Source of the DNA: Blasia pusilla
Taxonomy: Eukaryota
Reading direction: 5' to 3'
Length of the DNA stretch: 64,000 bases
Assembly (NCBI GenBank): GCA_050084515.1
Contig: CM114271.1
Coordinates: forward strand, 16,430,001 to 16,494,000
Below are positions 7,789-64,000 of the stretch, in pieces; within the stretch, counting starts at the first letter, position 1; the number at the start of each line of letters is the position of its first letter. A program made the translations under genes and the position numbers. The notes under the pieces were generated by a model, which worked only from the letters and a program-made list of their open reading frames with translations, ran no database searches and was not told where the DNA came from.

Positions 7789-7789
7789 A

Positions 7790-7801
7790 TGGTATCAGAG
7801 C
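7790..7801 (+). promoter_or_regulatory. Primer-binding site (tRNA-iMet) of Ty3/Gypsy element 1
   Basis: TGGTATCAGAGC one base after the LTR-terminal CA. Confidence 0.9.
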
Positions 7802-8419
7802 AAGGTTGCTCTTCCAACGAGAGTGGATTACCCCTCTTGGAAGGATGACTAAGTAATGATATACTGTTTAGAGTAGATAGGTTGTTAGAGGGTGGCACTG
7901 GCTATAGAGCTGCAAGTAGAGTAAGGGGGAAGGGTTGTTTTGCAGGTAATGGATGGAGGGGGAGCGAGAGTGGCTCCTAATTTCCCGTTTCTTAATCCGT
8001 TCACCATCAAACTCTTATATGTAGATAGACACTGGTTCACGAGATACCTCGTATATCACTTTGGTGAAGTTTTCATGACGGAAGTGATGGAGTCTCGCTA
8101 TCCGGTGATCCTCCCTATTGTTACATATGATCGTGTGTGGGATTGCACTATTTATATATTGTTTTAGAGGAGATATGGGCAATGGATTTGAATAGGCCCC
8201 CACAAGTGTTTTTTAACACTCGATGTATAGCCCATGTGGTTTTTCAACCTAAGATAGCATATAGAGAGTTTATGGTGAGGAAGTTTGGTCAAGAGTATTA
8301 TAATGAAGTCATTGCGTCAACACTGCCTTTTGTAGTCCCTATTGTGCAAAGTTGGCAGGTGTATATCTTGATCTTATATTAGAGTGATAGTAAAGGGTCA
8401 GGGGAAAGTCGGAGCGATC

Positions 8420-22347: not shown

Positions 22348-24765
22348 CTTAGTAGGTAGATGGTGCACACACGATTCCATGGATCGAGTTCAGAGATGGA
22401 ACAGCAGCTAGCGCAGGCGGAAGCTCAAAGGGAAGCTCTCAAAATCAGACTCAAAGAACGCGAGGATGAGCTTGAGCAGCTGCGCCAAGCCATGTTCGAC
22501 AATGTGAGTGAGGCGGCAGCGCCGCCTGAAGAACGTGTCGCAGATGCTGAACCAGCAAACCGTGCAGCTAGGGAGCTGCCCAATTCTCCTCCCCATTCAA
22601 TAACGGCGGCAGAGCGCTCGGGCGCACAGATTCAAGGTGAGAGACGCGGGCTGCTGTGGCCAAAGCCGGCGGAACCGCTTGTCTACAATGGAGAGCGGGA
22701 CCTGAGTTTATTCGAGTCTTGGGAATTTGTTATCTCGTTGTATCTACAGTGTTTTGCTTAGGCAGGGTGGTTCACGTACGCATGTTCCCGCTTAGGAGAA
22801 GTGGCTCGTCGCTGGTTGATGGCGGTGCAACGCGAGCGTGAAGCCGCCGCGCAGCCGCCCATTAGCACCTGGGAGGAGTTGAAGCAATTGATCAGAGCGC
22901 GGCTAGTGCCCGCCAATGAATATGTAAATGCAAGGCGATGGAGTCTTTATGTCAGACCCGTAGTATTCGCCATTACATATTTGAATTTGGTCACCTCGCG
23001 ACTCTAGCGGGAATGACGAATGTGGAAGAGAGGCGCTATCGGTTCATCTCAGGATTACAACACTTCTACGCCATGAAAGTGGAAGAATGGGGAGATGAGT
23101 TGGCGCTGGAAGCCGTATTTAAGAAGTTGGAGAATGTGGAATTCGCACGGAGAGAGCACGCTGGTCCGGCGACAACTAGACCAGCAGCACGCTAGTTCAA
23201 ACCGGCAAGAAGATGGAGAAGTGGCAAAGTGAGCCGCCAGATTCAAGGCCGCGGACGGCCGGGAACCAGCGGGAAATTTAGCACTACAGCGCGGGGATCT
23301 GGTGCCCTGCCACCGCGAGGATCTGGAGGTTCATCGGTGGGGTCAATTCTGAACCGGGCCGCCCAAACGCCAGCTCGAAACACGGGCGCGCCGGCCAGAT
23401 CTGAGACACCAAGATTTGGAATGCGGGCCAATTTGGCAGCGGCACCGGGCAGATCTTTGATGACGCCCGCTGTATCTGATGCATGCCGTTGTTTTCGATG
23501 CGGCCAAGGGGGACATTTTGTGAAGGAATGCCCGAACGCTGCTCTATTCTTCACTGATGGCGAGCATGCGGGTGAACCAGATCAGCAAGACGCCATCGGC
23601 GACACTAGAACCATTGAAGGCGTGGCTGAATTGGGATCAGGTATGCCTGAACTTGGTACAGCAGTGAATAGATGTTTGCCATGGGTGCGCATGTCCATTA
23701 AAGGGCAACCTATGTATTTCTTGTTGGACACGGGGGCTAATGTGAATGTGATGAATAGATCAGAGAGTAAGAGTCTTGGGCTTGCCGCAACCAAGATAGT
23801 CCAGCCCTTGTTAGTTCGGTTTGCTCAAGGATCCACGCAAGTGGATAGAAAATGTATGTCGGTTCCATTGTTGATAGGAAACACCGAACGCAGATCTGAA
23901 TTCTTGCTGATGGACTTACTGGGATCATTCATGGGAATTCTCTCTTGGAATTGGTTGCGGGAATTCAAAGCCATAGTTAATATCCACGAGGGATTTCTAT
24001 CCCTTTACGATAGATTTGGACAATGGAAAAAAGTTCCCTTGCTGAGGGCGCCTAAAACTGTAGAGGATCCCGAAGCCATGGCGCTGCAATTCAGTGAAGC
24101 GCGAGTAACCCACCAGGTTTGCTCCGCGCGTCAGTTTGACAAACTCCTAAAAACTTCCGATGAAGCTTGGACAGTTTTGCTGTCACAAGCCCCTACAGAA
24201 TCTGAACACCGTCACTTAAAACCGGAAGACGCCCGGCTTCATCCCGATATGAAAGCCTTGCTAGAGCGATACGCTGATTTAATGCCCAAGGAACTCCCGC
24301 CTGAATTGCCGCCTAGGCGCGCGCTCGTTCACAAGATCGAGATTCAGCCGGGCGCGGATATCCCTAGCATGGGGCGATGTTGCCGCATGACATGCACCGA
24401 GATGGAAGAAATCAAAGCCCTGAATGATCTGTTGAACAAGAATCACATTCGACCCAGTGTGTCGCCATACGCTGCCCCAATTCTGTTTGTGGCAAAGAAG
24501 GATGGGACGCTTCGGATGTGTGGCGATTATCGCGCTCTTAACAAGGTGACTCTCAAGAACCGCTATCCACTCCCGCTGATGGACGAGACTATGGATAGGC
24601 TCGCCACGGGGAGGTTCTTCACAAAACTCGATCTCAGATCGGGTTACCATCAGATTCGGATCGCTGAAGGAGATGAGTTCAAGACGGCGATCAGAACTCG
24701 ATATGGTCTTTACGAGTATGTGGTGTTACCCCTAGGCTTAACCAACGCCCCCGCCACATTTTGCA
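22348..24765 (+). mobile_element. Ty3/Gypsy element 2a internal region (gag-PR-partial RT), chromovirus-like, disabled
   Basis: gag 22360-23195 with stops and frameshift; [20 protein letters not shown] protease; [42 protein letters not shown], then truncated before the catalytic DD. Confidence 0.93.
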
Positions 24766-25142
24766 CGCTCTCTTCAAGAACCTTGAGCTCAATGTGCTAT
24801 GCCAACAAAAACATATACTTGAGAGTAGGTGAACCAACATGTCAGAGAGAGTCGCATCATGTATCCTCTTCTGCATCTCACAATGTAGAATCGCATACCA
24901 CAATTGATGCTATTAGCAATAGGATGTAAGCTAATCCATAAGTAACATTTAGCACTCCGAATGACAAAGATTGATTCATACAAATCTAACTAGGTGGTTC
25001 ACGAACTGACACGCAATTACAACAAAAGGGTTGCAAAATCTAGCTCAATGAATGACATGAAGCAGGAGATGACTCACAATGAGGCACAAGGAAAAAAAAA
25101 GAGCTTTAAAAGAAGAATTGTAACAGAATGGATGACGTTATT

Positions 25143-32469: not shown

Positions 32470-34460
32470 TGATGGAATCTCCGGATAATCAATCAATAAC
32501 CTCCTCCCCAAATGGTTGCATACTTCATTGTGTTCCTATATTATGAAATTGCTAAATTCTTCAAAATACCGTGGGTATGACTCTTTGAAATATATACATC
32601 CTCATAGAAGATGCTAGCATCTACTCATAGAAGTTATTGAGCTTCATCGTCTCATTAACATTATAAAAAATGAACGTAGCTAAATCTGGCTCTTGCTGAA
32701 AAACCAAAAAATTAAGGCAAAAAGGATCCCAAAGATGCTTGCATGCTAAACCCATATCCCATCTTTAACAATGGTTGATGTGGGTCTTGATCTTTTAGAT
32801 GACCTCCCTATAGACTGTAGTTGTGAAAGCCCCTTTACACCATCTTGAGAACACACTCGACTAGACCATCTATCTTAGGATGATATTATGATATCCTATG
32901 ATGGTCGATAAATGCTTTATCACGGAAGATTTGAAACTCCCCGTAAAGCTTGAGGCTATGGTACGTCAACATTTATGCTAGTGTCACATACTAACTCATG
33001 CTATCTATGTGTCTTGTATTCTATCGATTACCATTGAGACACCTAAATGGTAAGCTTGCTCACCATTTGCATCTATTATTGCCTTAGCAAGGGGGTTAGA
33101 GGGAGATGGGAAGGTACTATACATGTACTATTCTTGTGGCATATGGTTGAAGTTGCATTAGGGTTTAGATTCATTCCACTTGCGTAACTTTAGGCTCGAG
33201 GAGAGAAGCTTGTAGAGTTCATGATGTACAATGAGTGCAAATTTTAGTAGAGCAATATGATAGTATTTAACCGTGGATGCAACTTTTAGATAAGAAGTAA
33301 TCCACGTATATCATATGTGATTTATTTGAGTGATTGTCCAATTTTCTTCCAACAACTAAATACTTTGATGAGAAATTTATATATTGCTCCCTCACTCACC
33401 ATGTGGGGGAATGCAACCAACTCTATCCACTTCGAGAAGTTCTCGACCATCACCAACATTTATCAATTATGGAATTTTGTCAATAATTAAGGGCTTGAAA
33501 TTAAAATCCAAAGTCCATTTGTAGCCTAAACTCATTATTGGAAGTGGATGTAATTGTACATGTGAAGTTGGAGCATTTAATGATGCAAAAAAAAGGCAAT
33601 GTGTCAAGCTTCCCTATAAGTTTGTTGGATCCCATCAGCTCGTGTCAATGGTTGATCATCAAGGAGTTACCAAACAAGAACATCTAGAATGGATGATGAT
33701 CCACACTACAATGAAACACTCTCCCTTATTCAAGTTTTATTTCACCTCATCAACATTTTTTAGCGGCTAGCCTAAGCCACTATAAATTCTCTATCATGAT
33801 CGTCATGTTGAGTAAGAACCGTTCCAAATCTCATTAGACTCTTATCTGTATATATTTCGAAATTATCCCTTGTAATTGATCTCCGCAAGATAAACGTGGC
33901 CTCCGATAATTCCTTAAAAATTTTAAATACTCTCTCTTACTCATCTCCCCACTACCACTTTTGATCCACTTTTGTAAATAAGGTTAGAAGTTTTGCAATC
34001 GCAATGAATCTCTTGACGTATCATCGATATAAGTTTTCCAATTCCATGAATGCACAAACTTGACTCACATACATAGGGCATGTAATGCGTGAGATAGGCC
34101 CTACCTTCTTTTTATGAACACCAATTCCACTTGGGTATATCATATGACCCCAGTTGAATGGGTGAGATAGGCCCTACGTTCTTTTTATGAACACCGATTC
34201 ACTTGGGTATATCGTATGACCCTAGTTCTCAATCTGGTCATAGAAGAACCTACACTTGTGTGGATGTAGCTTCACCTCATGTGATTGCAATGTAAATAGC
34301 TCTACAAGGTATTGCTCATCACAACGCAACAATTGGCGGTACGTTGCAGATACAGACATCATGACATGATACTCGATCAAGTAGAGTGGCTACCAATCAC
34401 TATGCATGGCAAAGAAAAAGTTGAAACTCAAACCTATCAATAAAAAAAAACTCAAACCCA
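32470..34460 (-). mobile_element. Old, internally deleted relative of the DNMT/PHD Ty3 element (leader + RT/RNase H + integrase remnants)
   Basis: Reverse complement aligns by eye to 56020-56150 (34310-34450), 61670-61900 (34000-34290, with an internal ~72-bp duplication), 62060-62260 (33630-33820) and 63150-63640 (32470-32980). Confidence 0.8.
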
Positions 34461-41325: not shown

Positions 41326-42417
41326 TCACAATCTCTTCTTGTTGTAACTCTTGTTGAATTGATTCATTTGGAACCTCCACACCAGTACGAGAACGCCGAA
41401 CAAACCTAAAATCATGAGTATCCAGAGAGGGCTATTCGCCGAATCGGCAGGAAACTCGATCTCCTGAATGTTGAAATCGTCGCGGCTGTTTCCTTTCCAC
41501 TGGTCGGAGAGATAACTCGCGAGCGTGTAGGTCTGAAGATCCCTTGCAACCGCACTGGTTGTGAGGACTGACGCATCCAACTTCACTTCCTCGATCACAG
41601 TTGCAGAACGCCAGAAATCTCTACTGCTTATCAACCACGCTGATGGTGCGGACACCACTACCAGCGATCCATCAGAGCGCAACGCCATGCCATCGGCTCC
41701 CGCCATCGTCACCTCTTTCACTATTGCCACCCTCTGCACCGACTTGTCGGACAGCTTCACCCTGATCAAAGCTCCCGAGTTTGACTGATCCACCAGCAGC
41801 AGCCCCTCATGATACACAATTCCATTCAGACCCGCATCGGCAAAGCCCGGCTGATCCCAAACTACAGGCTGCTGCTGCTCTACCGCGACCAACAAACTCT
41901 TCTTTCCGGATAATCCCACCTGCCAAATGGAATTGCCCCAAGTTTCTGTCACATAGGCATTTCCCTGACCGTCAACCGCAACGTCATTGAACAAAACTTT
42001 ACCCCCTCCATCTTCATCCAGGCGCACAATTAGGGTTCGGTTTTTGGTACCCAAATCGTAAGCGACCAAAGCGGCAAACTTCTTCTCGAGGCCCTGCCTC
42101 GGACCGCTCTGCACCACAGCCAGCACGCGGTTCCGTTTGGCATCTACACACACGCCATGGATGCGTGCTCTGCCTGCGTACTCCTCGTCATTCACGAACG
42201 TTTCCACCTCCCCTGCGTCGCTCACACTCATCAGCTTTCCATGTGGTCCTGTCGATCCCACGATGAATCGGCTGTGCTTCTCGTCCCAATCGAAGCTTTC
42301 TGGAAACAACTGCGGTGCTTTGTACTCGATTCGGTGCAGCTCCGCCTCCACCACGCCTAGCACCGTCAAAGCCCATAGCAGCAACGCGAGCGCTCTCGTC
42401 CCTTTTCCTCCCACCAT
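41326..42417 (-). CDS. SMP-30/gluconolactonase-like (NHL, Ca-dependent phosphotriesterase superfamily) beta-propeller, type I membrane protein, 363 aa
   Basis: Signal peptide (ALALLLWALTVLGVVEA), LFPESFDWD..FIVGS, NDVAVDGQGNAYVT, GLNGIVY, GADGM, C-terminal TM followed by WRFQM..KKRL. First ATG is at 42417 (the ORF track starts at a GTG). Confidence 0.9.
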   Translation of the reverse strand: MVGGKGTRALALLLWALTVLGVVEAELHRIEYKAPQLFPESFDWDEKHSRFIVGSTGPHGKLMSVSDAGEVETFVNDEEYAGRARIHGVCVDAKRNRVLAVVQSGPRQGLEKKFAALVAYDLGTKNRTLIVRLDEDGGGKVLFNDVAVDGQGNAYVTETWGNSIWQVGLSGKKSLLVAVEQQQPVVWDQPGFADAGLNGIVYHEGLLLVDQSNSGALIRVKLSDKSVQRVAIVKEVTMAGADGMALRSDGSLVVVSAPSAWLISSRDFWRSATVIEEVKLDASVLTTSAVARDLQTYTLASYLSDQWKGNSRDDFNIQEIEFPADSANSPLWILMILGLFGVLVLVWRFQMNQFNKSYNKKRL

Positions 42418-45400
42418 CCCACCCACCCTTCCCTCAATTTCCTTCCAGACTCACCCTAAACCCTCGGAACCAAAGGAAGCCAAAATTGTCACTAGAATTG
42501 TAGGATTGCAATAGCGGCGAGAATCGCTTCACTGCCAGTGTAATTCCGCCGATTAATGAACAGGATTAAAAGAGGCAGAATTGAGTGCGATGCAAGAAAT
42601 GAGAAGCGCGACAAAAGAGCAACACGAATGGAACAGTGCCGATTTATGTACCGTTACGAACGGGCCGAGGTCCCACCGTCGGAGACGATCCCAATGCTTT
42701 TGGTTGCAGGCGTTCACAGACGAGAGCTCTGTGCTAGCGCGTCAGAAGTCAACATTCCATCGAAACAATGGACACCTCCAGTTGCTGTGCTGCAGTTAAA
42801 CTACTTTCTACCAATTAAGACGAAATGCTGGAAGCGTATCGCGCAAAACTCCAGCTGTTCGGAACCTTTTACTTCCACAGAATTCTTCAAGCTCCTCCAC
42901 AAACTCTACTCCAAGGCCGGAGAACCAACCGACTGCGGCCGATTTCTTATAAACCCTCTTAAGAAGACCCCATTTTCCCCACTCATAAGCAGGTTTTTAG
43001 AGCCAAACTGAGTTAACTCTCTCAGACCCACACACCGTTCCCATTCGGAAGGCGCCAAAAACCCTCTCCCAGGCCGGACACCCTTTGACCGTTCCATGAG
43101 AGCCAGTACCCAGATAAATTCAGGCCCCTCCGATATTTCAGCTTCCCTAGTTCCCATGGATTCCCAGGTGCGTTCGAGCGGACTCGGAGCCTTGGCCAGA
43201 GAGAGCCCCATGGCACGTTTTTCACGTAGTCCTTGTAGGTGTCGTAGTTTCCCAGGCCAAGGAAGCAGCCCAGACAAGTATTGCAGCTTTCGAGATCAGT
43301 GTCATGGCAGTGTGGGCTCCGGAGTAGTCGAATGCAAGTAACCGATGGATTGCGGCACATCCAGGTCTTGTTTGGAGCGTGAATTCATCCGGTCAGACTC
43401 CTGGGAATGTGCGACGGAGCTGGATTCATGAACGTGTCATCCGTCTACGAGAGAAGTCGGATCTTGAGATGCACTGACTCAGCAGATGATGCGTGGGGGG
43501 AGTAGGTCGGTCTCCCAAGTCCGACGCCAACGCCTCCATTTTTTACAGCCCATTCGGCACAGCGTATGATGACCGGATTATGATATTTGTTTGTTTGTTC
43601 GAGTTGCGGAGAGTTCACCAATAGAACGATTGGTGAAGAATTCTCGGTAACCGAAAAGAATTCTCGAATCAGCTTTTGCAGGAGCGCTTTTAAATTGAAG
43701 CGTCGCTTCTTCTTTGAACAGACGTTCCTCGGATCCCACGCAAACTGTGCTTTAGATTTCAGATTAAAAGAAAAGGATATTGAGTTGCGCTGGTTCCTAA
43801 CAAATGGAATCGACGACGTCCTTGTTTCCTGAGCCACTGCAGTCTCTTTGACATGTACTTGACCATCCACCGGACTCTCTAATTCTTCAACCCCAACCTT
43901 CGACATTTTCAGTGCATGATCCTGCCGAGTTCACCTCGCCGAGACGCTGGCGATCTTCACATGTTGACACTCCCCATTCTATAATCGTTTCCAATCACCG
44001 TACTTCACCTCGACTTGGGATTCGGTGTCCATGAGACGCAAGGTGATGAGGTTGACATTCCGCGTTCAGATGGATTTCCGCATTCCGCAATTCATCTGAG
44101 CGCACCTCTCGTGCGCTTTGGGGGAGTTCAACTGCAAGGTCACCAAGTTGACAATCCTCGATCCGTTGGGATATACACTTGTTATGATCGAACTGCGGGA
44201 GTTACCCAGCAGCCTAGTTCGGGGTCGACACTCCAAGCTCCATACACCCTGCAAACTTTGGGGGGTTTCGCCGAACGCAGGCAAGATCACAGAGTTTTGG
44301 AAGGGAAGAGCCAGCAAGTATTGAGCAAATAAAACTGGTTGTAGCAAGCAAATACTGGAGCTCGTTTTATTTGGTTTGAGTTAAGTAATGCACATGTTAG
44401 AATCTCACCGAACATGTTAAAGAAGAGGTAGAAAGCTTCGACCCACTGAACATATTGAAAGAGTGGCGGAAGGTAGAGGAAAGACCCAGCCGTGGTACTC
44501 CTACGGACACTTCAGTGTCGGGTTCACTCCGTGGGCTTGCTAATTTCTTCTCATCCTCTGTTCTTTTCCATCGCGTGAGTGAAAGTACCCTTAATAATAG
44601 ACATTTGGGGTTGAAAAGAAATGATCATGTCGCTGGCGATAGGCTGACCTATAGATCGGAGTTTTGGCTTTCCTGAAAAGTTGCTCGTGACATTCAACCA
44701 TAGCTTCACTGTCTTTGGTCTCTAGTTTCCATCAGGTGGAAAGGCCATTCTTTTTTTCTCTAGCACTACGGTAACTCCCAGAACTTTGACGCCCCAAGTA
44801 GCCTTCAGTGAGGGTGACTACATTTGCCTCATGGAATCTGAGATGTGTTGTGAGCTCCCACACGAGGAAGTTGCCACTGCTATGCTTCAGTGGTAGCGTG
44901 ACAATAGCACTTCAGCATTCCTTGGACTCTCGCTGAAGTCTCTCTGGGTGTATGCGCCGTTCCCCACAGGGATCGATTTTCCTCACTGCTGAAGCCAGAA
45001 GAGCTAACTAATGCAGAGATAGTTCACCCGATGCAAGCGAGATTACCAATCAACCCAGTTTTATTCGTTTAATATTTACCACTACAATGGTGTGCATCAG
45101 AGTTAGTTCGGTAACTTGAGTGGAAAGCTGGCCGTACCTAGCTTTTCAGTATGTGTTGATTGTGGGTTCCAACTTCTACGTACCCGACTCTCAGTTTCAA
45201 GGAGAGATGATGAGTTCTGGAATGCCCTCACTTGTTTTAGAAGAGTGGTTCGTTTGTCTTGATCCTGTTTGTTTTTTCCTCCTGCTACCATACTGAAAGA
45301 TGCATAGTCTTGTGGCGTGATCAACACAGACTTGTCTTTCGATTTCTAGCTTGTGATTAAACTCGTGTAATCGTGCTCATTGTATGTATCATACTTGTAG

Positions 45401-51449: not shown

Positions 51450-54400
51450 CTTGAAAACGTAATTTTGGCTTAACCGATTTCCACGCTATTATTAAGCCTA
51501 GTGAAACATTACCACAAATTAGTAGAAATGGGTGTGATGAAACATTTGAATTCTTGAAATAGTATGAGAATATCTTCATTGTTAAGAAGACCAAGGATCA
51601 ACTGAAGGGCAAGACATTCCACCAAGGTATATTTTGTTGTTTAGGTTTTCTCAAAGATTAATTTATTTTGTTTTCTTTGTGTCTTCATAGGATATGTTGA
51701 TAGAGGACCTATTTTATTAATTCGTTATGGTTGCCCAATGAATAAATTTGGATCTAGATATTGTACCTTTGTTGACTTGGATTTCACACTCTAGAATTGG
51801 AGTGCTTCTATTCTATGGAGTACATCTAGCTTACTTGAGAATCCACACAACCCATCACTTTTGTGTAGGGGTGTGTATTTGATGAAGGCTCATAAAAAAA
51901 AAGGTAATCAATAATATTCAATACATGCTTGGATGTGTCAAAGGGCAAGGGGATGAAGTCATATGGTGAGGAGAATAATGTCAAAAGTGGAAATATATCA
52001 CAAAATGACTCCTTAAAGAAAATACCAATTTTTTAAAAGTTATGCAAGGCTAGAAAGGTATGGCACTCCATAAATTGAATTCCAATATCTTGATTGATTC
52101 TACAGTTGTAGAAGATATCAAAATTTAAAAATAAAATTAAGGGGAAGCAAAAGGTTTGATAGGATATCACATCTTTTTGTGCAAATATTTATACCAATAC
52201 ATTGGTGATTTCCCATCATAAGTCACAAAAAATCAAGAATCTGAATGCAAATAAATTCCAAGGGAATGGAGAAGAAAGCAGTAGTTCAAGAGTGCAAAAG
52301 GGAATGTGTAATGGCTTATTCTATGTTGTTGAAGCACATGCATGGTTTCCCTCTTGGAAACAACAAAAAAGTAGTAGTGAAGGTGATGGCTTTAGGGGAC
52401 ATGGTTGGTGAGATGATAAGAAGAAGGAAATGGGAGTCAAATAGATACACCTACAAGGAATAGCAACGTACATGAACATCCTTTGGTAATAGATGCCTAA
52501 ATGGAAAGGCTAGTAGTGAATAAATCAAAACCTCAAAGAAGTCATCGGAGAGCTTGATATCAATGAGTAAAGGAGACGATGGATATCATCATCACTAGAG
52601 TGAACATTATCCATAATTTCCCTAGCCAAATTTATAATTGGTGTGGTCCAAAAGAATCAATCCATATAAGTGGTTAGCTACTATCCTTGCCAAAAACATA
52701 TATGTTGACAAGAAATTCACACATAAATTATCTAATCATAAACCATAAATTCAGTGTTGAGTTATTGAATCCAAGAAATTTATCTAGTCATACAATTTTT
52801 CTAATAGTGTTATTGATATTGTCCTTACGGCAAATCTACATGGATTTTGAGGCATGTGAAGTTCACAATCTAGTGTAAACTTCACCACTCATCTTCTAAG
52901 TCTTTAAAGCTACAAAAATATACTCATATTCCTTGGGCAAGGAGCCATCTTATAAAATATCCCCTTTTGGGTATGTATTCATATTTGGAAATTTAGGCTT
53001 CAAAGAAACAACCATTTTTTTTCCCTTAATGCCAATAGAAGTTGAACACAAAGAAGCAACTATGGCAACATATAAATATTTTTGGTAGAATAACCTACTT
53101 TTAGATACATGGTTATAATGGTCACTTAAAATTTTCATATACATGGATAATATCATTTTCATTCATTTGACAAACAATACAATGCTAAGTATTGGGTCAA
53201 TGCACATTGAGGTACATTATCAATTCATTAGGCTTCCAAATGTTCCCAAAGAGAAGATCCCAATAATTTAGAGACATCCATAGGATTTATTGAAAGTTAA
53301 GATTATGTATGAAGAAATATTCAAGATACATTATTGATGGTCCTAAATATTCCATAAAATCCACTTATATTCCAAACAAGTCGATGTAAGATATCTCAAA
53401 TCTAAATTATCTTGTGTGAGCAAATTATGCTTATTAAGGGGGAATTTGGAAAAAAAATAATCTGGATACTCTTGGCATAATTATAATCTTTGATAGGATT
53501 ATATTTGATAATTTAGTTAACTTTGTGGATTGGTAAATATGGCCCTTGGGATAACAAGTTAGGACTAGGTTGGTGACTTGTGTACATAATTTACACTCGG
53601 AGTTATATATGAGTGTGGGTTATCCATGTGATAGAAGATTTTTGAGCTTATTCTCTTTTTGTCGCATGTTTTGTTCTATTTCACAAGATGTGGCATAACC
53701 ATTTCAATACATGAAATATCCACATTCCTTTCAAATACCACTCAAATTTTTGAGATTGCATCTCCGACTATCCTTGTTACTATGACATCTTTTTCTTGCT
53801 TTGTAGAATTCTTATTTAAGCTACTTTGCTAGACAAGGTGTTTAATGTATTTTTTGTTCAGTAAATGAAGTTCAAACTCTTAGTCTACAAAATTCCTCCC
53901 AACTCAAAGAGAATAAGATACTTGAATGTTCCTCATAATGGGAAATCCCCCATTGGAGCACATGATCCTTCCTCATTATGATTACCATTGACCTTGTCCT
54001 CCTCATTTGCAAGTAGTGCTTCAAAGTAAAGGTTGACTTTGATGAGTAACTCTTCGATTTTACTTTAATGCCCTATTCTTGTTAATGGAAAGGGAAATTT
54101 TATCTTACAAAGTTTCTTACTAGAGATGGATGCTTGATCCATCTCTAACTCATAAATTCACCCACTTTTTTGGATCATTTGTTCCAACAAAATCTTCATA
54201 ATACCCATCATTTGAATATAGAGAACCGAGATATTTGATTGAAGGCTAAATTCACCTCTCAATAATTCTTATGCTTAGATCTTGTTGGTGTGATGCTTAC
54301 CACAATCTCCTTCTTTGGATTTTGGTCAAGTAAGGGTTTAACTCTTATTTTTTGGCATTTGATCCAACATGTGAATGAAGATCCATCCACCATTTCTATC

Positions 54401-54627
54401 TTCAAGCCCTTTTCCATTCAAATTCTTTCCTTGTCTTACGTCCCTCACCAAGTTTCAATCGCAACTTGTAGTTTGGAGTCCATACTCACCAGGGATTAAC
54501 TCTGTTACCAAATGTCATGCATGATGCACCTAGTCCCTTGAATTTCGATCTTGTGTGTTGTGAAAGCCTATTTTCAACATGTTCAACTCTCCTTGTTATT
54601 TGCACCCAAACGCACTCACACTAGTAA
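51450..54627 (-). mobile_element. Highly degraded LTR retrotransposon remnant (probably Ty3/Gypsy)
   Basis: Minus-strand LTR end GCATGACA followed by PBS-like TGGTAACAGAG (54500-54510). Faint RT-start-like (IVLFVK, about 53170) and RNase H-like (ECLAL, about 51610) traces in the expected order. Confidence 0.45.
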
Positions 54628-56664
54628 TGTCACGTCTTTTAGGATAGATCGGTGGGATCTAATAGAGCGCCTTCATGAGTAGTGGAGGACACGCCCAGTA
54701 GGTCGAGGGTGACCTGCTGAGGCCCTTGGAAACCTGAGATAACAGGTTTCCCCTTCGTTTCGGCTCATTTGGAGCCATATTGAGGAACTTACTATTTTAG
54801 GTAAGTACCATTTTGAGTATATGATCGACTTACTATTTTTGGTAAGTGGCTTTTGACCTCCTACATCAGGTCAAGAGCCAAGGAGGTGACTTGGGAGAAT
54901 AGGTTACCATGGAGAGAGCTTGGGACAGGAGAGGGGTATACCTCAAGGAGAGAGAGCTTGAGAGATCATTCTCTCTTTGTTGAACCTCTTGGCATGAGGC
55001 GGCGGAGCTATGGTACCTTGCCTTGTGAGTGTAACCCAAGCCTCTCATTAGGAGAGTGGGTTTGGTTTGACATGAGAGAGAGTGCACACCTTTGAGAGCT
55101 ATGGTGTGAGATGGTGGAGAGAGAGATTGGATCTTACTTTACAAAGAGAGAATGAGAGAATGAGAGAGTGAGAGAGTGAGAGAGCTTCATGAGGGAGCTC
55201 GCTAGTCACTTGTTGTTTTTGCAGGTTGGGGACCGTGTTCCCCATTCAGCGGCTCATGGGAGTGCTCACCGGAGCAAGGGCTGCTTTCATTACTCTTTGC
55301 ATTTACCGATTTTTCGTGTGGAAGAGTGGCGCGCGGAAGCGCTGCCCAATTTCTGATAGGGATTGAGTATGGGGGCAGGTTGCCCCATGCTGGTGCTCTC
55401 GGGAGCACCATGTAGCTTGTTGATATGTATTTTTACAGATGTTACATTTTCGTTGGGAGAAATCAGCGCGGGAGCGCTGCCAAATTTTGTGTAGGAGAAA
55501 GAGACATTGGGCTTTACGACAGTCCCCGTCAGTTTTTACTGAAATGTCTGATTCTAAATATTTTTGATAGTAGCGTAGATCGTGAAGCTGTGCACGCTGT
55601 GCAACAAACAATGCACAATTTTGAGTTGCGAGCAAAAAGTTATGGGCAATCTTGTAAAGCTGCCATTGCTAGGCGATTTTTAGGGTTAAATCGTGCAAAC
55701 CCTAAATCAGCCGCCACACCGGCGGCGGCCGTCGCCATCATAGTCACCGTCAACGGTCAACCATCACCGTCACCGGTCAACCGTCACCTTTGACGGTCAA
55801 CCGTCACCGTCATCGGTCAGCCGTCACCATCAGCGGTCAACCGTCACTGTCAAGGGTCCACCGTCCATTGTCCACCCTTTGGGTGCCATTGCCGCCATTA
55901 CGGAGTGGAGGGTCTTCCATGACGTTCGTTGATTCCTTGACTTGCGTCGCCACCACGTACTTTGTTTTGGCCGCCAACGTCATCGCATTTCTTCATCAAC
56001 CGTGAAGGAGATGACCTCCGGTTATGGTGTTTGAGTTTTGATTTCATCTTTCGCTATGTTGTGATTGGTAGCCGCCGACGACGATCGAAAGTATCGCGTG
56101 CCGTGACGCCGTGAGCCGCAACACGCCGCCGATTGCCGCGCCGTGCGCTGCGGGCCGCACCGCACACCATCTCGATTGCGGAGCCGCACCGTCATTGTGG
56201 AGCGAGTGTGGGATTATTATTGATTGAGGAGGGTATGGCTGGAGTGCCACATCCCACCATCGAGGGCCATGCCGTTCGAGCCGTTGCGCCGCCGCAACGC
56301 CGCACGTTCGCTGGGACCGCATTGTCTATCGAGGAGTTTTGAGCAAAGACATCGACGGGAGGAGTATGACTTGCTGATTGGAGGAGTTGTCTCCACGATC
56401 GAGTTGGGGTCGAGATTTGCGATTCTTTGAGGAGCGACATCGACATGTGTTCAGTTACCCATTCTCGGTCCTTTACCCGCACGTGTGAAGGATTTCGGGA
56501 TTTATTTGGGGATATTGGGTGTGTGGATGCCGAGAGCATCATTTATGTATGTGGTTTAGGGGACATAGACCGTGTGGGATGTCCGGAGTTGAGGGTAGGT
56601 TGTCGATGAGATGATAGCCTGGTCGATTTGCCGCACCACGCTGGGCGTGTTGCCGCACGTTACA
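54628..56664 (+). repeat. Putative ~2 kb 5' LTR of the DNMT/PHD element
   Basis: TGTCACG...CGTTACA imperfect terminal inverted repeat; GC shift at 54628. No tRNA-Met PBS follows and the second LTR is not in the window. Confidence 0.4.
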
Positions 56665-56949
56665 CGTCTTGGGGGAGAGAGTGTAGATCAAGTGCCGCAT
56701 GTTTGGGATGAGTGATTGAGGGATTCCTCACGAGGTTCAGAGTGATCGGGTGAGAGGGGCACGAGGGTCATCACGGAGTCCTGCATTCGGGACTTTGAGA
56801 GGCGAGGTGGTGAACCCGAGAGTAGCTCTAGAGGTTTTACGCGGAGTGGCGCGAGGTTTCGAGGGTCTCCACGTGAGGGACCACCTCGACCTCCTTCTGT
56901 GTCATCGTCAGACGAGGGGGAGGGTGTAGAGGAGTTTGTGAGCACATCA

Positions 56950-57976
56950 CCACACATTGTGAGTGGTCCTACCAGTTGGGCGTACGAGATGGATGACCGG
57001 GGTAGAGGACCGCGTAGGTTTTCAGGTGTAGTAGGCACGATTGAGTTGCACGATTTTATAGCAGAGTTTAGGAGTTGGTGCGACTCCCAGCGGGCCAGGA
57101 ACTCTAGAGAGTTTAACCCGTTTATAGCATGGAACGGTATGTTCCAACATTTAGAGGGGGCGCCCATGGACGATTACCATGAGTTCTCTCAGAGATATGC
57201 ATGTGAGATCGAGGCGTGGAGGCTCTACTATGACCCACATTATGTGTCATGGACGGAGCCGTTCCCGATGATGAGGAGGAGGAGTCGAGAGGCTCCGCCT
57301 CTTCCACTAGTGACGTTTTAGGAGGGGTCACTCGCACGGGAGCAATTGCACCGTCTAGTCGGGTTCGTCCCACGTTCAACCTTGTGGTTGAGTTCTTTGC
57401 TGAGTTGAGGGCGAGCTACCAGGGGGTATGGACGGAGAAGTTGCGGAGCATCCACGACTTCTAGAGGCGCTCGGGTGAGAGTTTGCGTGAGGCTTACACT
57501 CGCTGCGCGCCGGTTGATCAACGTCACTCGGGGGTGATAGAGGCTCAGCTATCCAGTCATGGTATGCGATGCTGGACCGGACCCTGCGGACACGGGTGCG
57601 GGAGGGGGTGCTTCTTATGAACACCTCCCCTACGTTGAGAGATGTTTTTAGGACCGCCGAGAACATTGAGCGCAACATGGCGGAGGAGAGCGTAGCCACC
57701 ATGGGTTCTGGGAGAGCGAAGCACGATTGTCTGCACCACCCTGTGCAACAACGTGGACTCCGAGATAGGTCGACTGTGGCACCACGAGCTCGGGGAGGAT
57801 ACCGAGAGGCCGTGCCACGAGACCCACGCCTTCATATGAGGCTGGAGCAGCCGCCTACTATTACTTGTTGGTCATGTGGTGGAGCCCATCATCGCCGCGA
57901 TTGCACTCGGGGGTCATGGACGTGTGCCTCAAAGATGGAGGAGGAGATGGTGCGCACCAGGAGGTTATTAGCATGA
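56950..57976 (+). pseudogene. gag: gag of the DNMT/PHD element
   Basis: PRRFSG...ELHDFIAEF..WCD, ESLREAY-like major homology region near 57480, CCHC knuckle from 57866. Frameshifted. Confidence 0.75.
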
Positions 57977-58879
57977 CTATTGTCGAGGTATGGTCATACA
58001 CGCCAAGTGTTTTAGTTTACATCCTGAGTTACGTCTTGGACCGAGGGCCGAGAGGGCACCAGAGCGAGTAGCCGGTCCGGGTGGGCCTAGAGATCGTGCT
58101 CAGGTGGTCCCGTTGGGGACGAGGAGTGGAGTTGCCCCGACAGGGTGGTGGAGTTGCCGTGGAAGAGGTAGAGTACCACCACCTAGACGCGCCAAGGAGA
58201 TGCCGGACGTGAGGTCGGGATGGTCGCCGATACATGGCGCGACTACTGAGGAGCAGATTGCCGCTATGGCATTGAGGTTACCCGATGCCGGATCCATGGC
58301 ATCGACATCATATGGAGCAGCCAGAGATCCGAGGATCCTGGATGGATGTGCGGGGTTGCCCAGATGGAGGCCGCCGCAGATTTGTGATGCGTGGAGCAGC
58401 CGCAGAGTTGGATCACAACGAGGGGAAGCCGATGGACAGACTAGGCTTCCTCAATCTTTCACGTTGTCCGAAGCGATGAGGACCCCATCGATGGGTCCTC
58501 ATCAAAGTTCCTGGAGAGTTGGTAATGTTGTTGGTGTGCAAGCACGGAGGGCGATGGGAGAAGCGAGTGCGACGACTCCTATTGTTGATGCTCAGGAGGG
58601 GCATGTGTCGAGCACGTTGTTGGGGGCGGCCACCGTTGTGTACCGCACTCCTTTATTTTTTGCTTCCGATGTTGTGACGTTGGGAGGTACGCCCGCCGAG
58701 GCTTTTCGGCTGGCCGCTTCACTATGTGAGCGCGGAGTTGGAGTTCCTGCATCACGTTCAGAGGTGATTGCAGAGGAGGTGATGGACCGCCCTTGAGCGG
58801 ATGCTCGGGCCGCCCACGTCGATTCATGGCAGTGCGGTCGCTAGTATGGCGGGATGCCCGCTAGACCCGCGATAGAGCG

Positions 58880-59160
58880 TGCCATGGCTTCTCCTGGTGT
58901 TGTGTTCTTCGGATAACCGAGGAGAGGTCTTCCAGTTGGTGAGTCCTGGAGGTAGAGCTTTTAGTCCGCAACACGCGTCTTGTTGGTTTGGAGCGCAACC
59001 CTTGATGTTGGGGAAAGCGTCATTCAGAGGATTGGGCTTGACGAGAGCCGATGTGGAGTGTTGTCCATTTTGGATACAGACATCCTTGGGTAGAGCGAGT
59101 ACCACACAGTATATCACCCGACAGGAGGTCATGGTGAGGATTCGCCGGGACATCCTATAG
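58880..59160 (+). pseudogene. Aspartic protease region of the DNMT/PHD element
   Basis: RVLL-(DS)-GAQPLMLG..GLGL with a damaged catalytic motif at about 58975-59010. Confidence 0.6.
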
Positions 59161-59688
59161 ATGAGTCCGTGGTGCGCGCCAAGGCGATAGTGATCGATCT
59201 TGAGTCCACGACGTCTTGGTTGGTGGAGCGTGTTATACCCGATGGGGTTTTCGGGATTATTGGGAGGAGTCATCGTCCCCTGCACCAGGATGGCGATCGG
59301 TGATGGGCGCCTTAGCTCATTACCCGTTCGATTCACAGTAAATGATCGAGCAACGGCCGAGAGATGGCGACCTTAGCAAAGATTTAGCGGTGCCATCACT
59401 TGGCCTAGTGATTTGATTGAGGGACATGTCCATGCAGAGGATACTCCGTTCGACATTTCTATGGAGAGGAGTGTTATGGTAGCCGCATCATTCCGTGGAG
59501 GAGAGGTGCCGTTGTGGGGCTCGATTGAGGAGCTTCAACGATTGGCGGATCGACGCGAGATCGGCTGCGTGGAGCGAGGCGTTTGCACCGAGCGTGACGG
59601 GTCCGAGAACCCGAGGTAGCGGGGAGTGCTACGATGACACCCTTGGATACAACACCCATTGTGTGGTGTACCGGGAGGAGGGTTTTCG

Positions 59689-60620
59689 AAAGTGTTAGAT
59701 CTCTTTGGAGGGATTAGCACCGGGTTAGTCATTGTTTTGCGAGCATGAGTGCGAAAGTCAAAGAAGATTTGTATGTGGAGAGTGATGATGTTGCAGGCGC
59801 GTCTCACTACGACATGTGGCGCAATTACGCCACGTTTTCCCGACTTATTGTCTGCGTCCGTAGTACTGGGTACCGAGTTTCCCTACCGAGGATATTTTGT
59901 TGTTGGGGCGCAGGACTTAGAGCGGTAGGACCATTGATTTGGTCATTGCCGGTTGGCCATGTCGCCAATCGAGTCTTTGGACGAGGCGGCGGGTTGGCCG
60001 ACACTCGGTCCAGGTTGTTTTGGGAGATGTTGAGGGTCTTGGCGATTCAGGAGCACCGGCCTCGTTCTCCGGCCTACATTCGGAGAATGTGCGATCTTAG
60101 AGACTCAGGTCACGGGTCGTGACAAGTGCTCATCAAAGTGCGTGCCTGGATCGCCCAAAGCAGGTGTTCTTGGATGCGGCGAGTGTAGGTTCTAGAGCCC
60201 ATCGCCCGCGTCTATGGTGGACCAACTTGGTGCCCCATGCGGTGTTATGGAGGCCGTATGCGAGAGTGGAGCGCCCCTCCCCTTTGTTAGTGGATTCCAT
60301 TCTGGATCCAGGTCATCGATCACAGGCAGTGAGGCACGATGATCGACCACCGCTGATTGTGGTCAACAAGGTAGGCAGGCCACGGGCAACCTTGCCCACG
60401 TTTGTGAGTTTTCCCGCTTCCTATGCATACAAGGAGGCCGGTCCTAGCTTGGTTTGGGATGACCAGGTTCAGCGGTTGGTGGAGCCCAACGCCGAAGAGA
60501 GAGAGAGCGAGCGATGGGATTTCCCACATGAGTGACGGCAGTACCATCAGTGTCAGAGGCATCACGACGCCATGTCTTCGGTTAGGCGATGGACTTGAAC
60601 TGCTTGACATGGATCCTCAG
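59689..60620 (+). pseudogene. DNMT3-like C5 cytosine DNA methyltransferase domain embedded in pol
   Basis: Motif I KVLDLFGGISTG (59689); II LYVESD; III EDI; IV IDLVIAGWPC (Cys codon 59960-59962); GLADTRSRLFWEMLRVL; VI ENV (60083-60091); VIII LDAASVGSRAHRPRLWWTNL; IX EERERAMGFP; X RRHVFG*AMD. Canonical order and spacing, broken by frameshifts and 2 stops. Confidence 0.9.
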
Positions 60621-60965
60621 CTTGGGAGTGGTTGAGCAGCGTCGTATGAGATCGCGACAGATCACAACGGTTGCTTTGGTGAGCCCCATGCCTACCGAGA
60701 CGGTGGAGGCAGTGGCTGGGGGCGAGACCGAGGAGATCTACGCACCATGGGAGATCGGGAGAGACACCCTTGGACTTCTTGGGATGTTTTGAAGGTAAGC
60801 AAGGAGATGATAGCCACAGCATCGAGCGTGGTTTCGGGCACTGCACGTGGAGGAGATCAGAGTTTGCAGTTGGCTGCAGGAGTGCGGCCGAGTGTTGTTG
60901 TTCAAGACGGGGTTGCACCATAGCAACCACCGATACCTGCGCCGGAGAGTCCTACCGTAGTCACG

Positions 60966-62360
60966 ATGGAGACTTGGGATCTAGATATGGGCCCTAAGTT
61001 GACAGGAGGAGAGCGGCGCCGAATACATAAGTTCCTCAGGAGTTATAGGAGCTGCTTTGCGTTTAGCATGGAGGATTTGGGTACGCTGAAGGGACCGGGG
61101 ATCCGCATTGAGTTGTCGAGTGATATGCCGATCTTCCGACGACCCTACAGGTACAGTGATATGGAGAGGGCTCTGATTCAGAGTAGGAGCCAAGACTTGG
61201 TCGGAGCAGGACTAGTGGAGATGTCGCATGGGGAGTATGCATCTGCCAATGTCATGCCCGCCAAGAAGGATGTGCATGGCAACTGGACGGATAGGCGGAT
61301 GTGTGGGGATTACCAACCTATCAATCGGCAGACGAAGTCCGATAGGTATGCCATGCCCACCCTTGAGGAGATCTTTGATGCGATTGGTCACGCAAAGGTC
61401 TTGATTCATTGATTTTGAGCCGATACCATGTTGCCTCTCGATTGGAGGACAGCGTAAGACGGCATTTTGGGGCATCGATCCTCACGGGAAGGATTGTTTG
61501 TACCAGTGGCGGTTCTTACCATTTGGGTTAAAGAACGCCCCGGCTGAGTTTCAGAGGGTCATGGATAGGATCTTGGCTGGTCTGGATTTTGCTAGGTGTT
61601 ATATTGATGACATCGTAGTCTTTAGCGCCACGGTTGAGGAGCACGAGCAACATCTAGAGGAGGTGTTTCGACGATTGCAATCACATGGGCTGAAGCTACA
61701 TCCAGGCAAGTGCAAGTTCTTCTACGACCAGATTGAGTACTTGGGTCATACGATATACCCAGGGGGCCTTGGTGTTCAGCAGACGAAGGTAGAGGCTATC
61801 TCACGCATTCCACGCCCTACAGATGTGAGCCGTGTTCGCGCATTCATGGGATTGGCGAAATTCTATCGGCGATACGTCAAGGGATTGATTCGATTATGGC
61901 GCTGACCTTGCTCACCAAGGTGGATCACGAGTGGCACCTTTGGGGGGATGAGCGGAGCGAGCATTTCAATTGCTCAGGGCAGGTTGGCGTCCGCACCCAT
62001 CTTGAGGAGACCGATCGGGGCGTCCTTTCGATTGCACGATTGGAGCATGTTGGGGCTTGGAGTGGTGCTCACCAAAGCATGATGATGAGGGTAGAGAGTT
62101 TGTGGTGGCTTACGCTAGCCGCTCGAACAACGCCGCAGAGGCGAAATCGGCTTGTATGAGGGTGAGTTTGGTCGGTGTGGGTTGTCGCGCATTTTAGGTG
62201 TTACTTATTCGGCAACCCCTTTACCATCATCATCGATCATCAACCACCGAAGTGGTTGATGGAGTCCGACAAGCTTACAGGGAAGCTTGCGAGATGGGCT
62301 CTGTTGTTGCAGGAGTATGATTTTTGGTACATAGACCTGGAACGCTCAACCAGGATGTAG
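60966..62360 (+). pseudogene. pol: RT and RNase H of the DNMT/PHD element
   Basis: RRMCGDYQPIN, YAMPTLEEIFD, PFGLKNAPAEFQRVMD, YIDDIVVFS, YLGH, VVAYASR, DHQPPKWL, GKLARWALLLQEYDF. Confidence 0.95.
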
Positions 62361-62632
62361 ATGGGTTGAGTTGTAACCCATGCCCGAGTCAGCGAGATGC
62401 GATTGGATCTCGATGGCATGGAGAGAGTGATGAGGAGTCGGTGCCAGGATGGCACGCGTCAGCCTATTTAGGCATGTTGGCTATGGAGAGCCAGAGTGTG
62501 GAGACTTTGATGGCGAGGTCTAGTGGAGAGTCTTTGGATCCCGAGGCGGTGAGGACACGACAAGTGGCGAGATATTCATGATGATGGAGTAGTCTTAGAG
62601 TACCTTCAGACATCGGCAGCCTTGCAAGCACC

Positions 62633-64000
62633 ATGGATGCTAGAGAGCGGGATCGGATCCTACAGCGGGCCAGACGGTTCCGTTGGGAGGGGACACATGT
62701 TTTGAGGGTTTGGGAGGATGGCAGAGTACCGCGAGTGCCGCATCCTTTGCAGAGAGCACGACTAGTGCAACATGCCCACGAGGAGTTGGGTCACTTTGGG
62801 GTGAAGCGGACGTATAGCTTGCTCCGGATTCAATATTGGTGGCGAGGCATGCAGGCAGGCGTTCAGCAGCTTTGTTGCCAAGTGCATGGTGTGTGATCGG
62901 GTCCGAGCATCGTTCAATGCTCGACTCCACAATTGCATCCATTACCGATCATGGGCTTAGGGTATAGATGGAGTTTGGATTTTGCGGGACCTTTGCCCTT
63001 GACGGAGCGCCACGATCGTTATGTGTTGGTGATGGTGAGCACTTCTCGAAGTGGATCGAGTTGGTTGCATTGCCGACAAAGCAAGTGAGGGAGTAGCTTA
63101 TGCCTTCCTTGACAGAGTCTTTGAGTCATTATGGCGCACCGGTGAGGTGTTGATGACCAGGGTACCGAAGTTTCGCGGTGAGTTCCAGGCCTTGTGTGAC
63201 GGGCGATCGACCATCGCGCGACCGCGAGATCATCCCGAGGCGGATGGATTAGCGGAGAGAGTTGTGCAGACGGTGAAGAGGCGTTTACGCAAGTATGGCT
63301 TGCAGAGAGGTCACCTAGGAGATTGGGACCTCTAGTTGCTATGGTTGGCGATGGGATACAGATTCAGCAGGCAGGCATCCTTAGCGTCTTTTTCACCGTA
63401 CTTGCTACTTTATGGCCGAGAGCCACATTTACCTGCGGCCATTCGTCGAGATGCTGGTGAGATGGTGAACCTTGATGACCCAGATGTATGGGTGCGAGCA
63501 TGTTCTCAGAGGGCTGAGTTATTTCGGAGAGTGATGCTCATGGCGTTCGAGAACTTGGCGATTGCACAGCATCGGGATACGTTGAGGTATGCGACTATTT
63601 GAGGTGGTAGTTATCGACCAACTATCCGGAGGTTTCATCAGGGAGATTATGTCTATTTGCAGCAGACGGCACCGATGATGTTGGATGTGACTGCAGGGCG
63701 CACTATCCTGAGAGTGCGTGACATTTTGCCATCGGGTGTTCTCTTGCTTGAGGGACGCGATGGTATGGTATGGAATGACCATGTGCGTAATTGTGCGCCA
63801 TGTCACCTTCCTAACATTGATGGTACATTAGATCCGAGCTTAGTAGTAGTTCCTGCAGGCTTGCGTTGTATGTTGTGTGGTTCTGCCCGTGGTGCGGCCA
63901 CGATGCTAGTCTGTGATGGCTGTTCGAGAGGATGGCATATGGCATGTTTGACGCCACCTCTCACTAGGGTTCCTCAAGGACGATGGATGTGTCCCAGATG
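62633..64000 (+). pseudogene. Integrase with C-terminal PHD finger (63867-64000)
   Basis: HEELGHFG..YWW, WSLDFAGPLP, HPEADGLAERVVQTVK, FSPY.LLYGR, then in frame after the TGA at 63600: CMLC...MLVCDGCSRGWHMACLTPPLTRVPQGRWMCPR(C). Confidence 0.92.

Follow-up and report, generated by a model that had tools for sequence, protein, structure and literature searches.

A decayed Ty3/Gypsy retrotransposon copy in a liverwort genome, probably with a DNMT3-type cytosine methyltransferase module in pol

We present here an analysis of a stretch of 64,000 nucleotides of the Blasia pusilla genome (GenBank assembly GCA_050084515.1, contig CM114271.1, positions 16,430,001 to 16,494,000 of the forward strand), called the window below, with all coordinates counted from its first letter. 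The last part of the window, 54628-63998 on the + strand, very probably belongs to a Ty3/Gypsy long terminal repeat (LTR) retrotransposon of high copy number in a liverwort genome and covers the first nine kilobases, from the 5' end, of one decayed copy. The main subject is a cytosine-5 (C5) methyltransferase module of DNMT3 type inside the pol region of this element, and we give a probability of about 0.9 to the identity of the element as a Gypsy retrotransposon with such a module. On the whole, the window, the Marchantia polyproteins and the metagenome loci give a family order of LTR, gag, protease (PR), methyltransferase (DNMT), reverse transcriptase (RT), RNase H (RH), integrase (INT), PHD finger and LTR, in which gag and pol form one reading frame. 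The positions of the features are collected in Table 1; labels beginning with P stand for related proteins and those beginning with L for metagenome loci.

At the 5' edge of the element (54628), the loose ends of 3,652 DNA reads fall just ahead of the position, the DNA read depth rises from ~3 to more than 3,000 with a peak of ~11,200 in 54800-55199, and the GC content changes from ~0.34 to ~0.5. The window holds no second LTR copy; the element runs off the window end and its 3' LTR lies beyond. No tRNA gene and no polypurine tract are found in the window, and the search for a primer-binding site with TGG-type motifs gives two weak and unconvincing candidates, at 55327 and 56847. The tandem repeat in the leader differs in copy number among family members, as seen from read joints. 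In gag, a motif search gives a CCHC zinc knuckle (CWSCGG, 57866-57883), and the Marchantia protein P0017 (Mp_4g09160) has two such knuckles, its methyltransferase following a protease that reads LLDSG. The protease region of the window reads LMLGK at 59002-59016, whereas at the active site the LLDSG of the relatives is replaced by CWFG, so the catalytic Asp is gone (the protease stretch of P0017 is VLLDSGAQPLMLGK, and the window open reading frame (ORF) 58876-59160 ends in ...ASCWFGAQPLMLGK). Relatives P0047, P0078 and P0200 have Asp_protease_2 Pfam matches at the same position, and no protease Pfam match is obtained with the single-frame pieces of the window. Downstream, the window matches RVT_1, RT_RNaseH and Integrase_H2C2 in the Ty3/Gypsy order of pol, tblastn places the Marchantia polyproteins colinearly along the window, gag through RNase H, and the RT has 67-74% identity to Marchantia P0019 (tblastn). 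The pieces of the integrase core in the window give no Pfam match; the region 62765-63943 has ~75% DNA identity to 11353-12535 of L008, and this part of L008 can be aligned with the integrase and PHD finger of P0212 and P0049, two proteins with rve and PHD domains. The PHD finger of the window (PF00628, E 3.9e-11) occupies residues 89-132 of ORF 63603-63998. Chromoviruses are Gypsy elements with a chromodomain after the integrase, and it is a PHD finger that stands in this position in the family studied here; it may read histone tails and steer integration. PHD fingers are also observed at 9923-10057 of L051 and 10067-10201 of L031, ~300 nt before the 3' LTR, and recur in the distant family members P0049, P0052 and P0212.

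The remains of the methyltransferase are read from a translation of the three frames of 59560-60720, a stretch without N. The original prediction, made from the letters alone, had listed eight C5 methyltransferase motifs in canonical order on one strand, and all of them are found, on the + strand, at the places given for them. The order I-II-III-IV-VI-VIII-IX-X is non-permuted in the window and its relatives alike, and plant DRM enzymes have a circularly permuted motif order; YVE, DI and ENV are each too short to carry meaning singly. The placement of the motifs between protease and RT, also claimed at first, agrees with the colinear tblastn matches of the Marchantia polyproteins and with the Pfam matches of the window. 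The methyltransferase domain of Mp_4g09160 matches 59400-60900 with an E of 7e-68 (tblastn, 1.5-kb subject). With residues 858-1262 of the same protein as query, a frame-tolerant protein-to-DNA alignment locates the domain at 59616-60841, with 227 of 392 aligned residues identical to Mp_4g09160. The span first proposed, 59689-60620, was rightly placed and too narrow, the domain being wider (~59616-60777). The proposed splitting of the ORF by frameshifts appears in this alignment as 11 frame changes (59667, 59687, 59746, 59793, 59843, 59931, 59978, 60105, 60497, 60718 and 60807) and two in-frame stops (60529 and 60583); a further frame holds the ENV motif, which has a stop right after it, so that 2-3 stops are counted in total. 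Because of the frameshifts and stops in the methyltransferase, together with the loss of the protease Asp, the window copy itself makes no enzyme. A 144-aa in-frame piece of it (60101-60535) has 27 relatives in a search of 5.8 billion proteins (best E 2.3e-49); PF00145 is among the precomputed domains of 17 of them, the sources of the 27 being Sphagnum, Calypogeia fissa, Marchantia polymorpha and metagenomes. In an ESM Atlas search, PF00145 is assigned to 30 of 30 matches. At the level of sequence, the methyltransferase resemblance of the whole stretch is far beyond chance.

Table 1. Positions of the features of the element, followed by those of the neighbouring sequence.
Feature	Position	Strand	Basis or remark
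5' LTR	54628-55300	+	TG start at 54628; 3' limit somewhere at ~55.2-55.5 kb
20-nt tandem repeat, 5 overlapping 60-nt copies	55743-55882	+	leader between LTR and gag
gag, over three frames	57004-57904	+	tblastn of Marchantia P0017, P0016, P0022
Linker and aspartic protease region	58005-59600	+	colinear tblastn with Marchantia polyproteins
DNMT3-type C5 cytosine methyltransferase, decayed	59616-60777	+	tblastn, motifs, frame-tolerant alignment
Motif I, VLDLFGGI	59692-59715	+	frame 1
Motif II, YVE	59772-59780	+	frame 3
Motif III, (E)DI	59888-59896	+	frame 2
Motif IV, DLVIAGWPC	59936-59962	+	frame 2
Motif VI, ENV	60083-60091	+	frame 2
Motif VIII, AHRPRLWWTN	60197-60226	+	frame 2
Motif IX, ERAMGFP	60505-60525	+	frame 1
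Motif X, RHVFG*AM (asterisk, stop)	60568-60591	+	frame 1
Reverse transcriptase	60975-62076	+	RVT_1, E 2.5e-25 on ORF 61405-61905
RNase H	62018-62707	+	RT_RNaseH, E 1.1e-13 on ORF 62166-62360; tblastn of P0019
Integrase, fragmented core	62585-63866	+	Integrase_H2C2, E 3e-12 on ORF 62585-62896
PHD finger, C-terminal end of pol, cut by window end	63867-63998	+	PF00628
Exo70 exocyst gene, intact, intronless, 692 codons	3203-5281	-	protein search
Other Gypsy-type element or fragment, gag-PR-RT-RH ORFs	8544-11807	+	
Other Gypsy-type element or fragment, gag-PR-RT-RH ORFs	23196-24929	+	
Other Gypsy-type element or fragment, gag-PR-RT-RH ORFs	33387-34291	-	
ORF, 519 aa	13498-15057	+	
ORF, 374 aa, hydrophobic N-terminus and C-terminus	41326-42450	-	

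The type of the methyltransferase is determined from the relatives. The gathering cut-off of PF00145 is passed by 8 of 10 relatives in a first scan, and again by 8 of 10 in a second set (P0047, P0049, P0030, P0078, P0095, P0056, P0200 and P0204), in which P0052 and P0119 do not pass it. A profile of 12 family domains (A1) was then run against all PDB sequences. The 29 best distinct sequences are all DNMT3A, DNMT3B or DNMT3C, with E from 1.3e-13 to 3e-9, followed by DNMT2 (6e-6), tobacco DRM (7.5e-6), HhaI (8e-6) and Arabidopsis DRM2 (6e-5), so that DNMT3 stands ahead of DNMT2, DRM and HhaI by ~7 orders of magnitude. The alignment with DNMT3 consists of one block over motifs III-VIII and a second over IX-X. 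For member P0009, an AlphaFold model made from an alignment of 38 sequences (A2) has a pLDDT of 90.4 and a pTM of 0.89, and the Foldseek matches listed for it in PDB are all DNMT3, the best with an E of 7.5e-19 and a TM score (target) of 0.84, the scores reaching 0.85. Because of the PDB profile ranking and the fold, we assign the family methyltransferase to the DNMT3 type, as had been proposed from the motifs, and the non-permuted motif order agrees. Host DNMT3 enzymes (mammalian DNMT3A/3B/3C, and in plants e.g. MpDNMT3b) are thus the best matches in profile and fold and have the same motif order, with the signatures FxGxxxG, PC, ENV, RxRxxWxN and ERxxGF in common. The family differs from them in several respects, however. 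In the family polyproteins scanned, no PWWP and no ADD domain is found; motif IV reads PCQ where DNMT3A has PCN in the PDB alignment; the motif VIII-IX region is ~26 positions longer than in DNMT3A; and the domain is embedded between retropepsin and RT. The Marchantia records borne by transposable elements (TEs), namely Mp4g09160, Mp8g17980 and others, are genes distinct from MpDNMT3b (Mp5g09290). Gene sets label such records 'DNA (cytosine-5-)-methyltransferase' (Mp_8g17980 and a Sphagnum troendelagicum record). The TE-borne methyltransferase records of Marchantia and Sphagnum could inflate counts of host DNMT3 and are not to be counted as host genes.

We then searched 1.84 billion cluster representatives with A1, giving 6,205 proteins with E<=1e-3, 1,036 with E<=1e-10 and 315 with E<=1e-30. 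Many of them are polyproteins of 1,000-3,456 aa, and species names are recoverable for few. The named members include 14 records of Marchantia polymorpha, one of Sphagnum fallax, a 'pol' of Scenedesmus sp., GAQ93235.1 of Klebsormidium nitens (P0078), Cymbomonas tetramitiformis, and Closterium sp. NIES-54 with three further Closterium strains. Two architectures are seen among the members. The first is PR-DNMT-RT-RH-INT, as in the window, and reads CCHC-PR-DNMT-RT-RH-INT in P0047; the second is RT-RH-DNMT-INT-PHD (P0049 and P0052). The two positions of the methyltransferase in pol suggest either module shuffling or two captures. Three metagenome loci, L051, L031 and L008, have pairs of direct LTRs with 86-94% identity and the order LTR-gag-PR-DNMT-RT-RH-INT-PHD-LTR, with gag-PR-DNMT of L008 in one frame. 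A FastTree tree of 185 TE-borne domains, midpoint-rooted, groups Marchantia, Calypogeia and Sphagnum together with environmental sequences; further out come Closterium, then Klebsormidium, and then a large remainder including the chlorophytes Scenedesmus and Cymbomonas.

To view the element within its own species, reads of four runs with the same species label were aligned to 52000-63998 at >=88% likeness, comprising one DNA run (a Hi-C library, of which ~1% was used) and three RNA runs. The summed DNA depth is ~1-6 per bin (mean ~3) on the flank 52000-54399 against ~1,300-11,200 on the element, and this difference puts the family at the order of a thousand copies or fragments. In the bins of the methyltransferase, three in number, the depth is ~1,770, 2,400 and 3,790. 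No RNA reads fall on the flank, the RNA depth of the element is 5-200, and more than 90% of the RNA reads have one orientation, with the first mate on the - strand. These data also bear on the alternative of a one-off capture, in which a host DNMT3 pseudogene, or another element, became nested by chance in this Gypsy copy. Such a chance event would agree with the lack of a continuous frame linking protease, methyltransferase and RT in the window copy, and with the depth at 59600-59999 (~1,770), about half of that in the neighbouring bins. However, the methyltransferase bins are still ~570-1,200 times as deep as the flank, no abundant read joint that skips the domain is among the joints listed, and the Marchantia ORFs P0016, P0022 and P0019 run unbroken through gag-PR-DNMT-RT. 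Moreover, 208 metagenome stretches encode relatives, the full-length loci examined sharing the order, and elements of K. nitens and Closterium have the same order as well. A one-off capture is hence scarcely conceivable, and it is rejected here because other copies and other species carry the same PR-DNMT-RT order. The expectation that other family copies carry the methyltransferase segment is thereby borne out by both metagenome relatives and read depth. As to base composition, of the 1,360 places that vary in the DNA run, 741 are C>T or G>A, and the metagenome copies L001-L080 are depleted in CpG (observed/expected 0.23-0.85) with an excess of TG+CA. Such CpG loss together with a C>T/G>A excess is what the deamination of methylated cytosines leaves behind in copies that are silenced.

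Selection on the domain was studied in two sets. The first comprises 80 loci out of the 208 metagenome relatives, 7 of which are free of in-frame stops in the domain. Ratios of nonsynonymous to synonymous changes (dN/dS) were computed by the Nei-Gojobori method for 53 loci with a single long match, with stop codons masked; they are 0.61 for 260 pairs with dS of 0.1-0.2 and 0.56 for 323 pairs with dS of 0.2-0.4. The second set comprises 224 domains in 213 proteins. Here 186 of 187 domains retain the catalytic Cys; the Glu of ENV is conserved in 194 of 199 and its Asn in 188 of 200, and the two arginines of motif VIII in 194 of 204 and 199 of 203. In the wider family, 90 of 186 domains have Glu in place of the Pro of the motif IV Pro-Cys pair (W-E-C-Q-D), the Cys being kept; the bryophyte members read PC. 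In our reading, the replicating lineages would have been under long-term purifying selection for a catalytic enzyme, and the inserted copies would decay neutrally. Since most copies are dead, dN/dS within subfamilies is uninformative on function. Purifying selection, the absence of which would have spoken against the original prediction, is seen between subfamilies and at the catalytic residues; among recent dead copies constraint is largely relaxed.

Several results weigh against the reading of a DNMT3-type enzyme module in pol, and they are gathered here. None of the five single-frame DNMT pieces of the window matches PF00145, so that the profile evidence comes from the relatives; the C5 methyltransferase profile match that the original prediction called for is obtained with these and not with the window's own fragments. 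Neither P0016 nor P0022, among the 10 relatives of the first scan, matches PF00145, and the 144-aa piece of the window finds 0 matches among PDB chains (phmmer). The window copy keeps GWPC, yet its frameshifts (at least 11) and stops (2-3) make it uninformative about function. Some of its indels may have arisen in the assembly, the repeat having ~1,000 copies, and are not separable here from true ones. At least half of the family reads differ at several indels of the window copy, and the two extra bases at 60497, for example, are missing from 1,575 of 3,141 DNA reads and 120 of 206 RNA reads. The DNMT3 assignment is based on PDB ranking and fold, the tree here being of TE-borne domains alone. 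As for the RNA, its orientation would mean sense transcripts on the usual dUTP stranded convention, and most RNA reads are 90-95% like the window copy and come from other copies. In 73 of the 80 metagenome loci the domain is interrupted by 1-15 in-frame stops. The dN/dS among close copies is 0.56-0.81, and the low values of 0.11-0.22 are found in 90 pairs with dS >0.8, which is near saturation, 678 saturated pairs having been dropped. In 21 loci holding both domains, the dN/dS of the methyltransferase exceeds that of RT in the same pairs (0.51 vs 0.44 in 32 pairs, and 0.66 vs 0.38 in 38 pairs). Most copies therefore decay neutrally, and the methyltransferase is less constrained than RT.

We turn to the function of the module. 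In intact copies it would most likely be an active S-adenosylmethionine (AdoMet)-dependent cytosine-5 methyltransferase, as judged from sequence and model, because the catalytic residues are near-invariant and the fold is that of DNMT3. The mechanism we propose is that in such copies the domain would be translated as part of Pol and would use AdoMet to methylate cytosines de novo at position 5, in the new cDNA or the fresh insertion of the element itself. The self-methylation would give the copy a host-like methylation state, and the C-terminal PHD finger would read histone tails and thereby steer integration. We put forward this combination of self-methylation with PHD-guided integration tentatively, as quite possible and short of probable. 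The original prediction had likewise supposed that the enzyme would be packaged in the particle and could methylate the new cDNA. The sole published experiment on a domain of this lineage is that of de Mendoza et al. (2018, PMC5890265), in which no methylation was detected when the KnitGypsy-Dnmt3 domain of K. nitens was expressed in yeast, a result that also counts against an active enzyme and that its authors regarded as inconclusive. The same yeast result would fit another explanation, in which the methyltransferase is a conserved module that does not methylate DNA, either a pseudo-enzyme that binds DNA or AdoMet, or a methyltransferase of RNA, with a structural, targeting or RNA-marking role. 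This would also agree with the replacement of the motif IV Pro by Glu noted above, and with the rank of DNMT2, an RNA enzyme, as the next-best PDB match after DNMT3. However, a pseudo-enzyme need not keep the nearly invariant catalytic Cys, ENV and motif VIII arginines, motif IV reads PC in bryophytes, and both profile and fold favour DNMT3, the profile by some seven orders of magnitude over DNMT2. In addition, human DNMT3B also failed in that yeast assay, which leaves the negative result inconclusive, and SymbioDIRS-Dnmt3 methylated CG de novo in yeast (PMC5890265). A non-methylating module is thus unlikely.

As to known relatives, KnitGypsy-Dnmt3 is a Gypsy element of K. nitens whose Pol ORF includes Dnmt3 domains (Ka/Ks <0.2), and their acquisition was inferred to have taken place in the K. 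nitens lineage (PMC5890265). This is the charophyte case to which the original prediction had referred, and it proves homologous and colinear. In its protein P0078, zf-CCHC and an aspartic protease precede the methyltransferase. The alignment of P0078 with Mp_4g09160 spans 569 aa, protease to motif X (29% identity, E 2e-54), and includes the long family-specific motif VIII-IX stretch; the E of A1 against P0078 is 1.1e-57. Because the order CCHC-PR-DNMT is shared and the alignment is colinear, the window element is of the same lineage as KnitGypsy-Dnmt3, and hence is not new in kind. The two share the LTR Gypsy organisation and, within Pol, a Dnmt3-type domain of non-permuted motif order. They differ in the host, a charophyte there and a liverwort here with relatives in other liverworts and Sphagnum; in copy number, a few in K. 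nitens (PMC5890265) against the order of 1,000; and perhaps in the repeats, DIRS-like there (Fig. 4 legend of PMC5890265) against plain direct LTR pairs in L008, L031 and L051. A PHD finger ends pol here, while the word PHD occurs 0 times in the main text of PMC5890265. SymbioDIRS-Dnmt3 and SymbioLINE-Dnmt of Symbiodinium are also retrotransposon-borne cytosine methyltransferases, the DIRS one being of Dnmt3 type; they differ from our family in retrotransposon class (DIRS and LINE) and host lineage, and the Symbiodinium and K. nitens cases are treated as unrelated acquisitions (PMC5890265). Chromoviruses and the EpiLTRs (bioRxiv 10.64898/2026.05.21.726589) likewise have a chromatin-reader or DNA-modifying module appended to pol. 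In the EpiLTRs, however, the methyltransferase stands at the 3' end of pol and is reported as sister to DNMT4, not DNMT3, while in the window family it stands upstream of RT.

The age of the capture is a further question. Judging from the alignments, the capture of DNMT3 looks older than the K. nitens lineage, with horizontal spread as an alternative. One Gypsy lineage may have captured DNMT3 before the split of Klebsormidiophyceae, Zygnematophyceae and land plants, and stayed catalytically competent since, with about a thousand transcribed copies in the liverwort; we regard this whole scenario as possible and somewhat doubtful. The elements of bryophytes, Closterium and Klebsormidium may otherwise have acquired DNMT3 independently or horizontally, not from one ancient TE-borne module. 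This would be in line with the gain in the K. nitens lineage inferred in PMC5890265 and with the two insertion points in the wider family (PR-DNMT-RT and RT-RH-DNMT-INT), and the tree is without an outgroup and without host DNMT3s. Nevertheless, the three streptophyte groups share the insertion point, and the stretch of protease, linker and DNMT is colinear including the long motif VIII-IX region. A1 gives an E of 1e-57 for the K. nitens protein against 1e-13 for DNMT3A (the database sizes differ), and the branching of bryophytes, Closterium, Klebsormidium and then the remainder with chlorophytes mirrors the host phylogeny. Independent or horizontal acquisition is thus rather improbable. If DNMT3 was captured once in this lineage and has stayed active, de novo cytosine methylation in land plants would have a second source, borne by a transposon, which would mark the new DNA of the element and possibly host DNA, and the published inference of a capture specific to K. 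nitens would be revised. Retrotransposons bearing the class of enzyme used by hosts for silencing were described in 2018 in dinoflagellates and one charophyte; the same lineage is now found in land plants, in high copy and with sense-strand RNA, including Marchantia polymorpha with at least 14 protein records. Knock-outs, methylome profiling and transposition assays are routine in Marchantia polymorpha. The question of whether the module serves self-marking, camouflage, self-restraint or host manipulation moves into this tractable system.

In the open full text (subscription journals and supplements being outside the scope), no explicit report of a land-plant Gypsy-DNMT3 was found, and none appears in the available parts of PMC12344493, PMC11982613, PMC9406493, bioRxiv 10.64898/2026.05.21.726589 and bioRxiv 10.1101/2021.02.12.428880. 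Later literature citing the 2018 work speaks of DNMT3 in retrotransposons of 'streptophytes', and supplementary DNMT surveys may list bryophyte TE-borne sequences. What is new here is the family in land plants, apparently as a first report.

The neighbouring sequence of the window bears on the host. The Exo70 protein has 81% identity to that of Marchantia polymorpha and 77% to that of Calypogeia fissa, and one further match reaches 79%, whereas the other matches of comparable coverage are at most 63% (Diphasiastrum 61%, Sphagnum 57%). The match in Riccia fluitans has 70% identity over only 71% of the query. The gene shows the host to be a liverwort other than M. polymorpha itself, in agreement with the land-plant host assumed at the outset. 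Besides the element studied here, three other Gypsy-type stretches are present in the window (8544-11807, 23196-24929 and 33387-34291), in none of which tblastn detects a methyltransferase. The last of them, on the - strand, has 80-86% DNA identity to the RT and integrase of the studied element.

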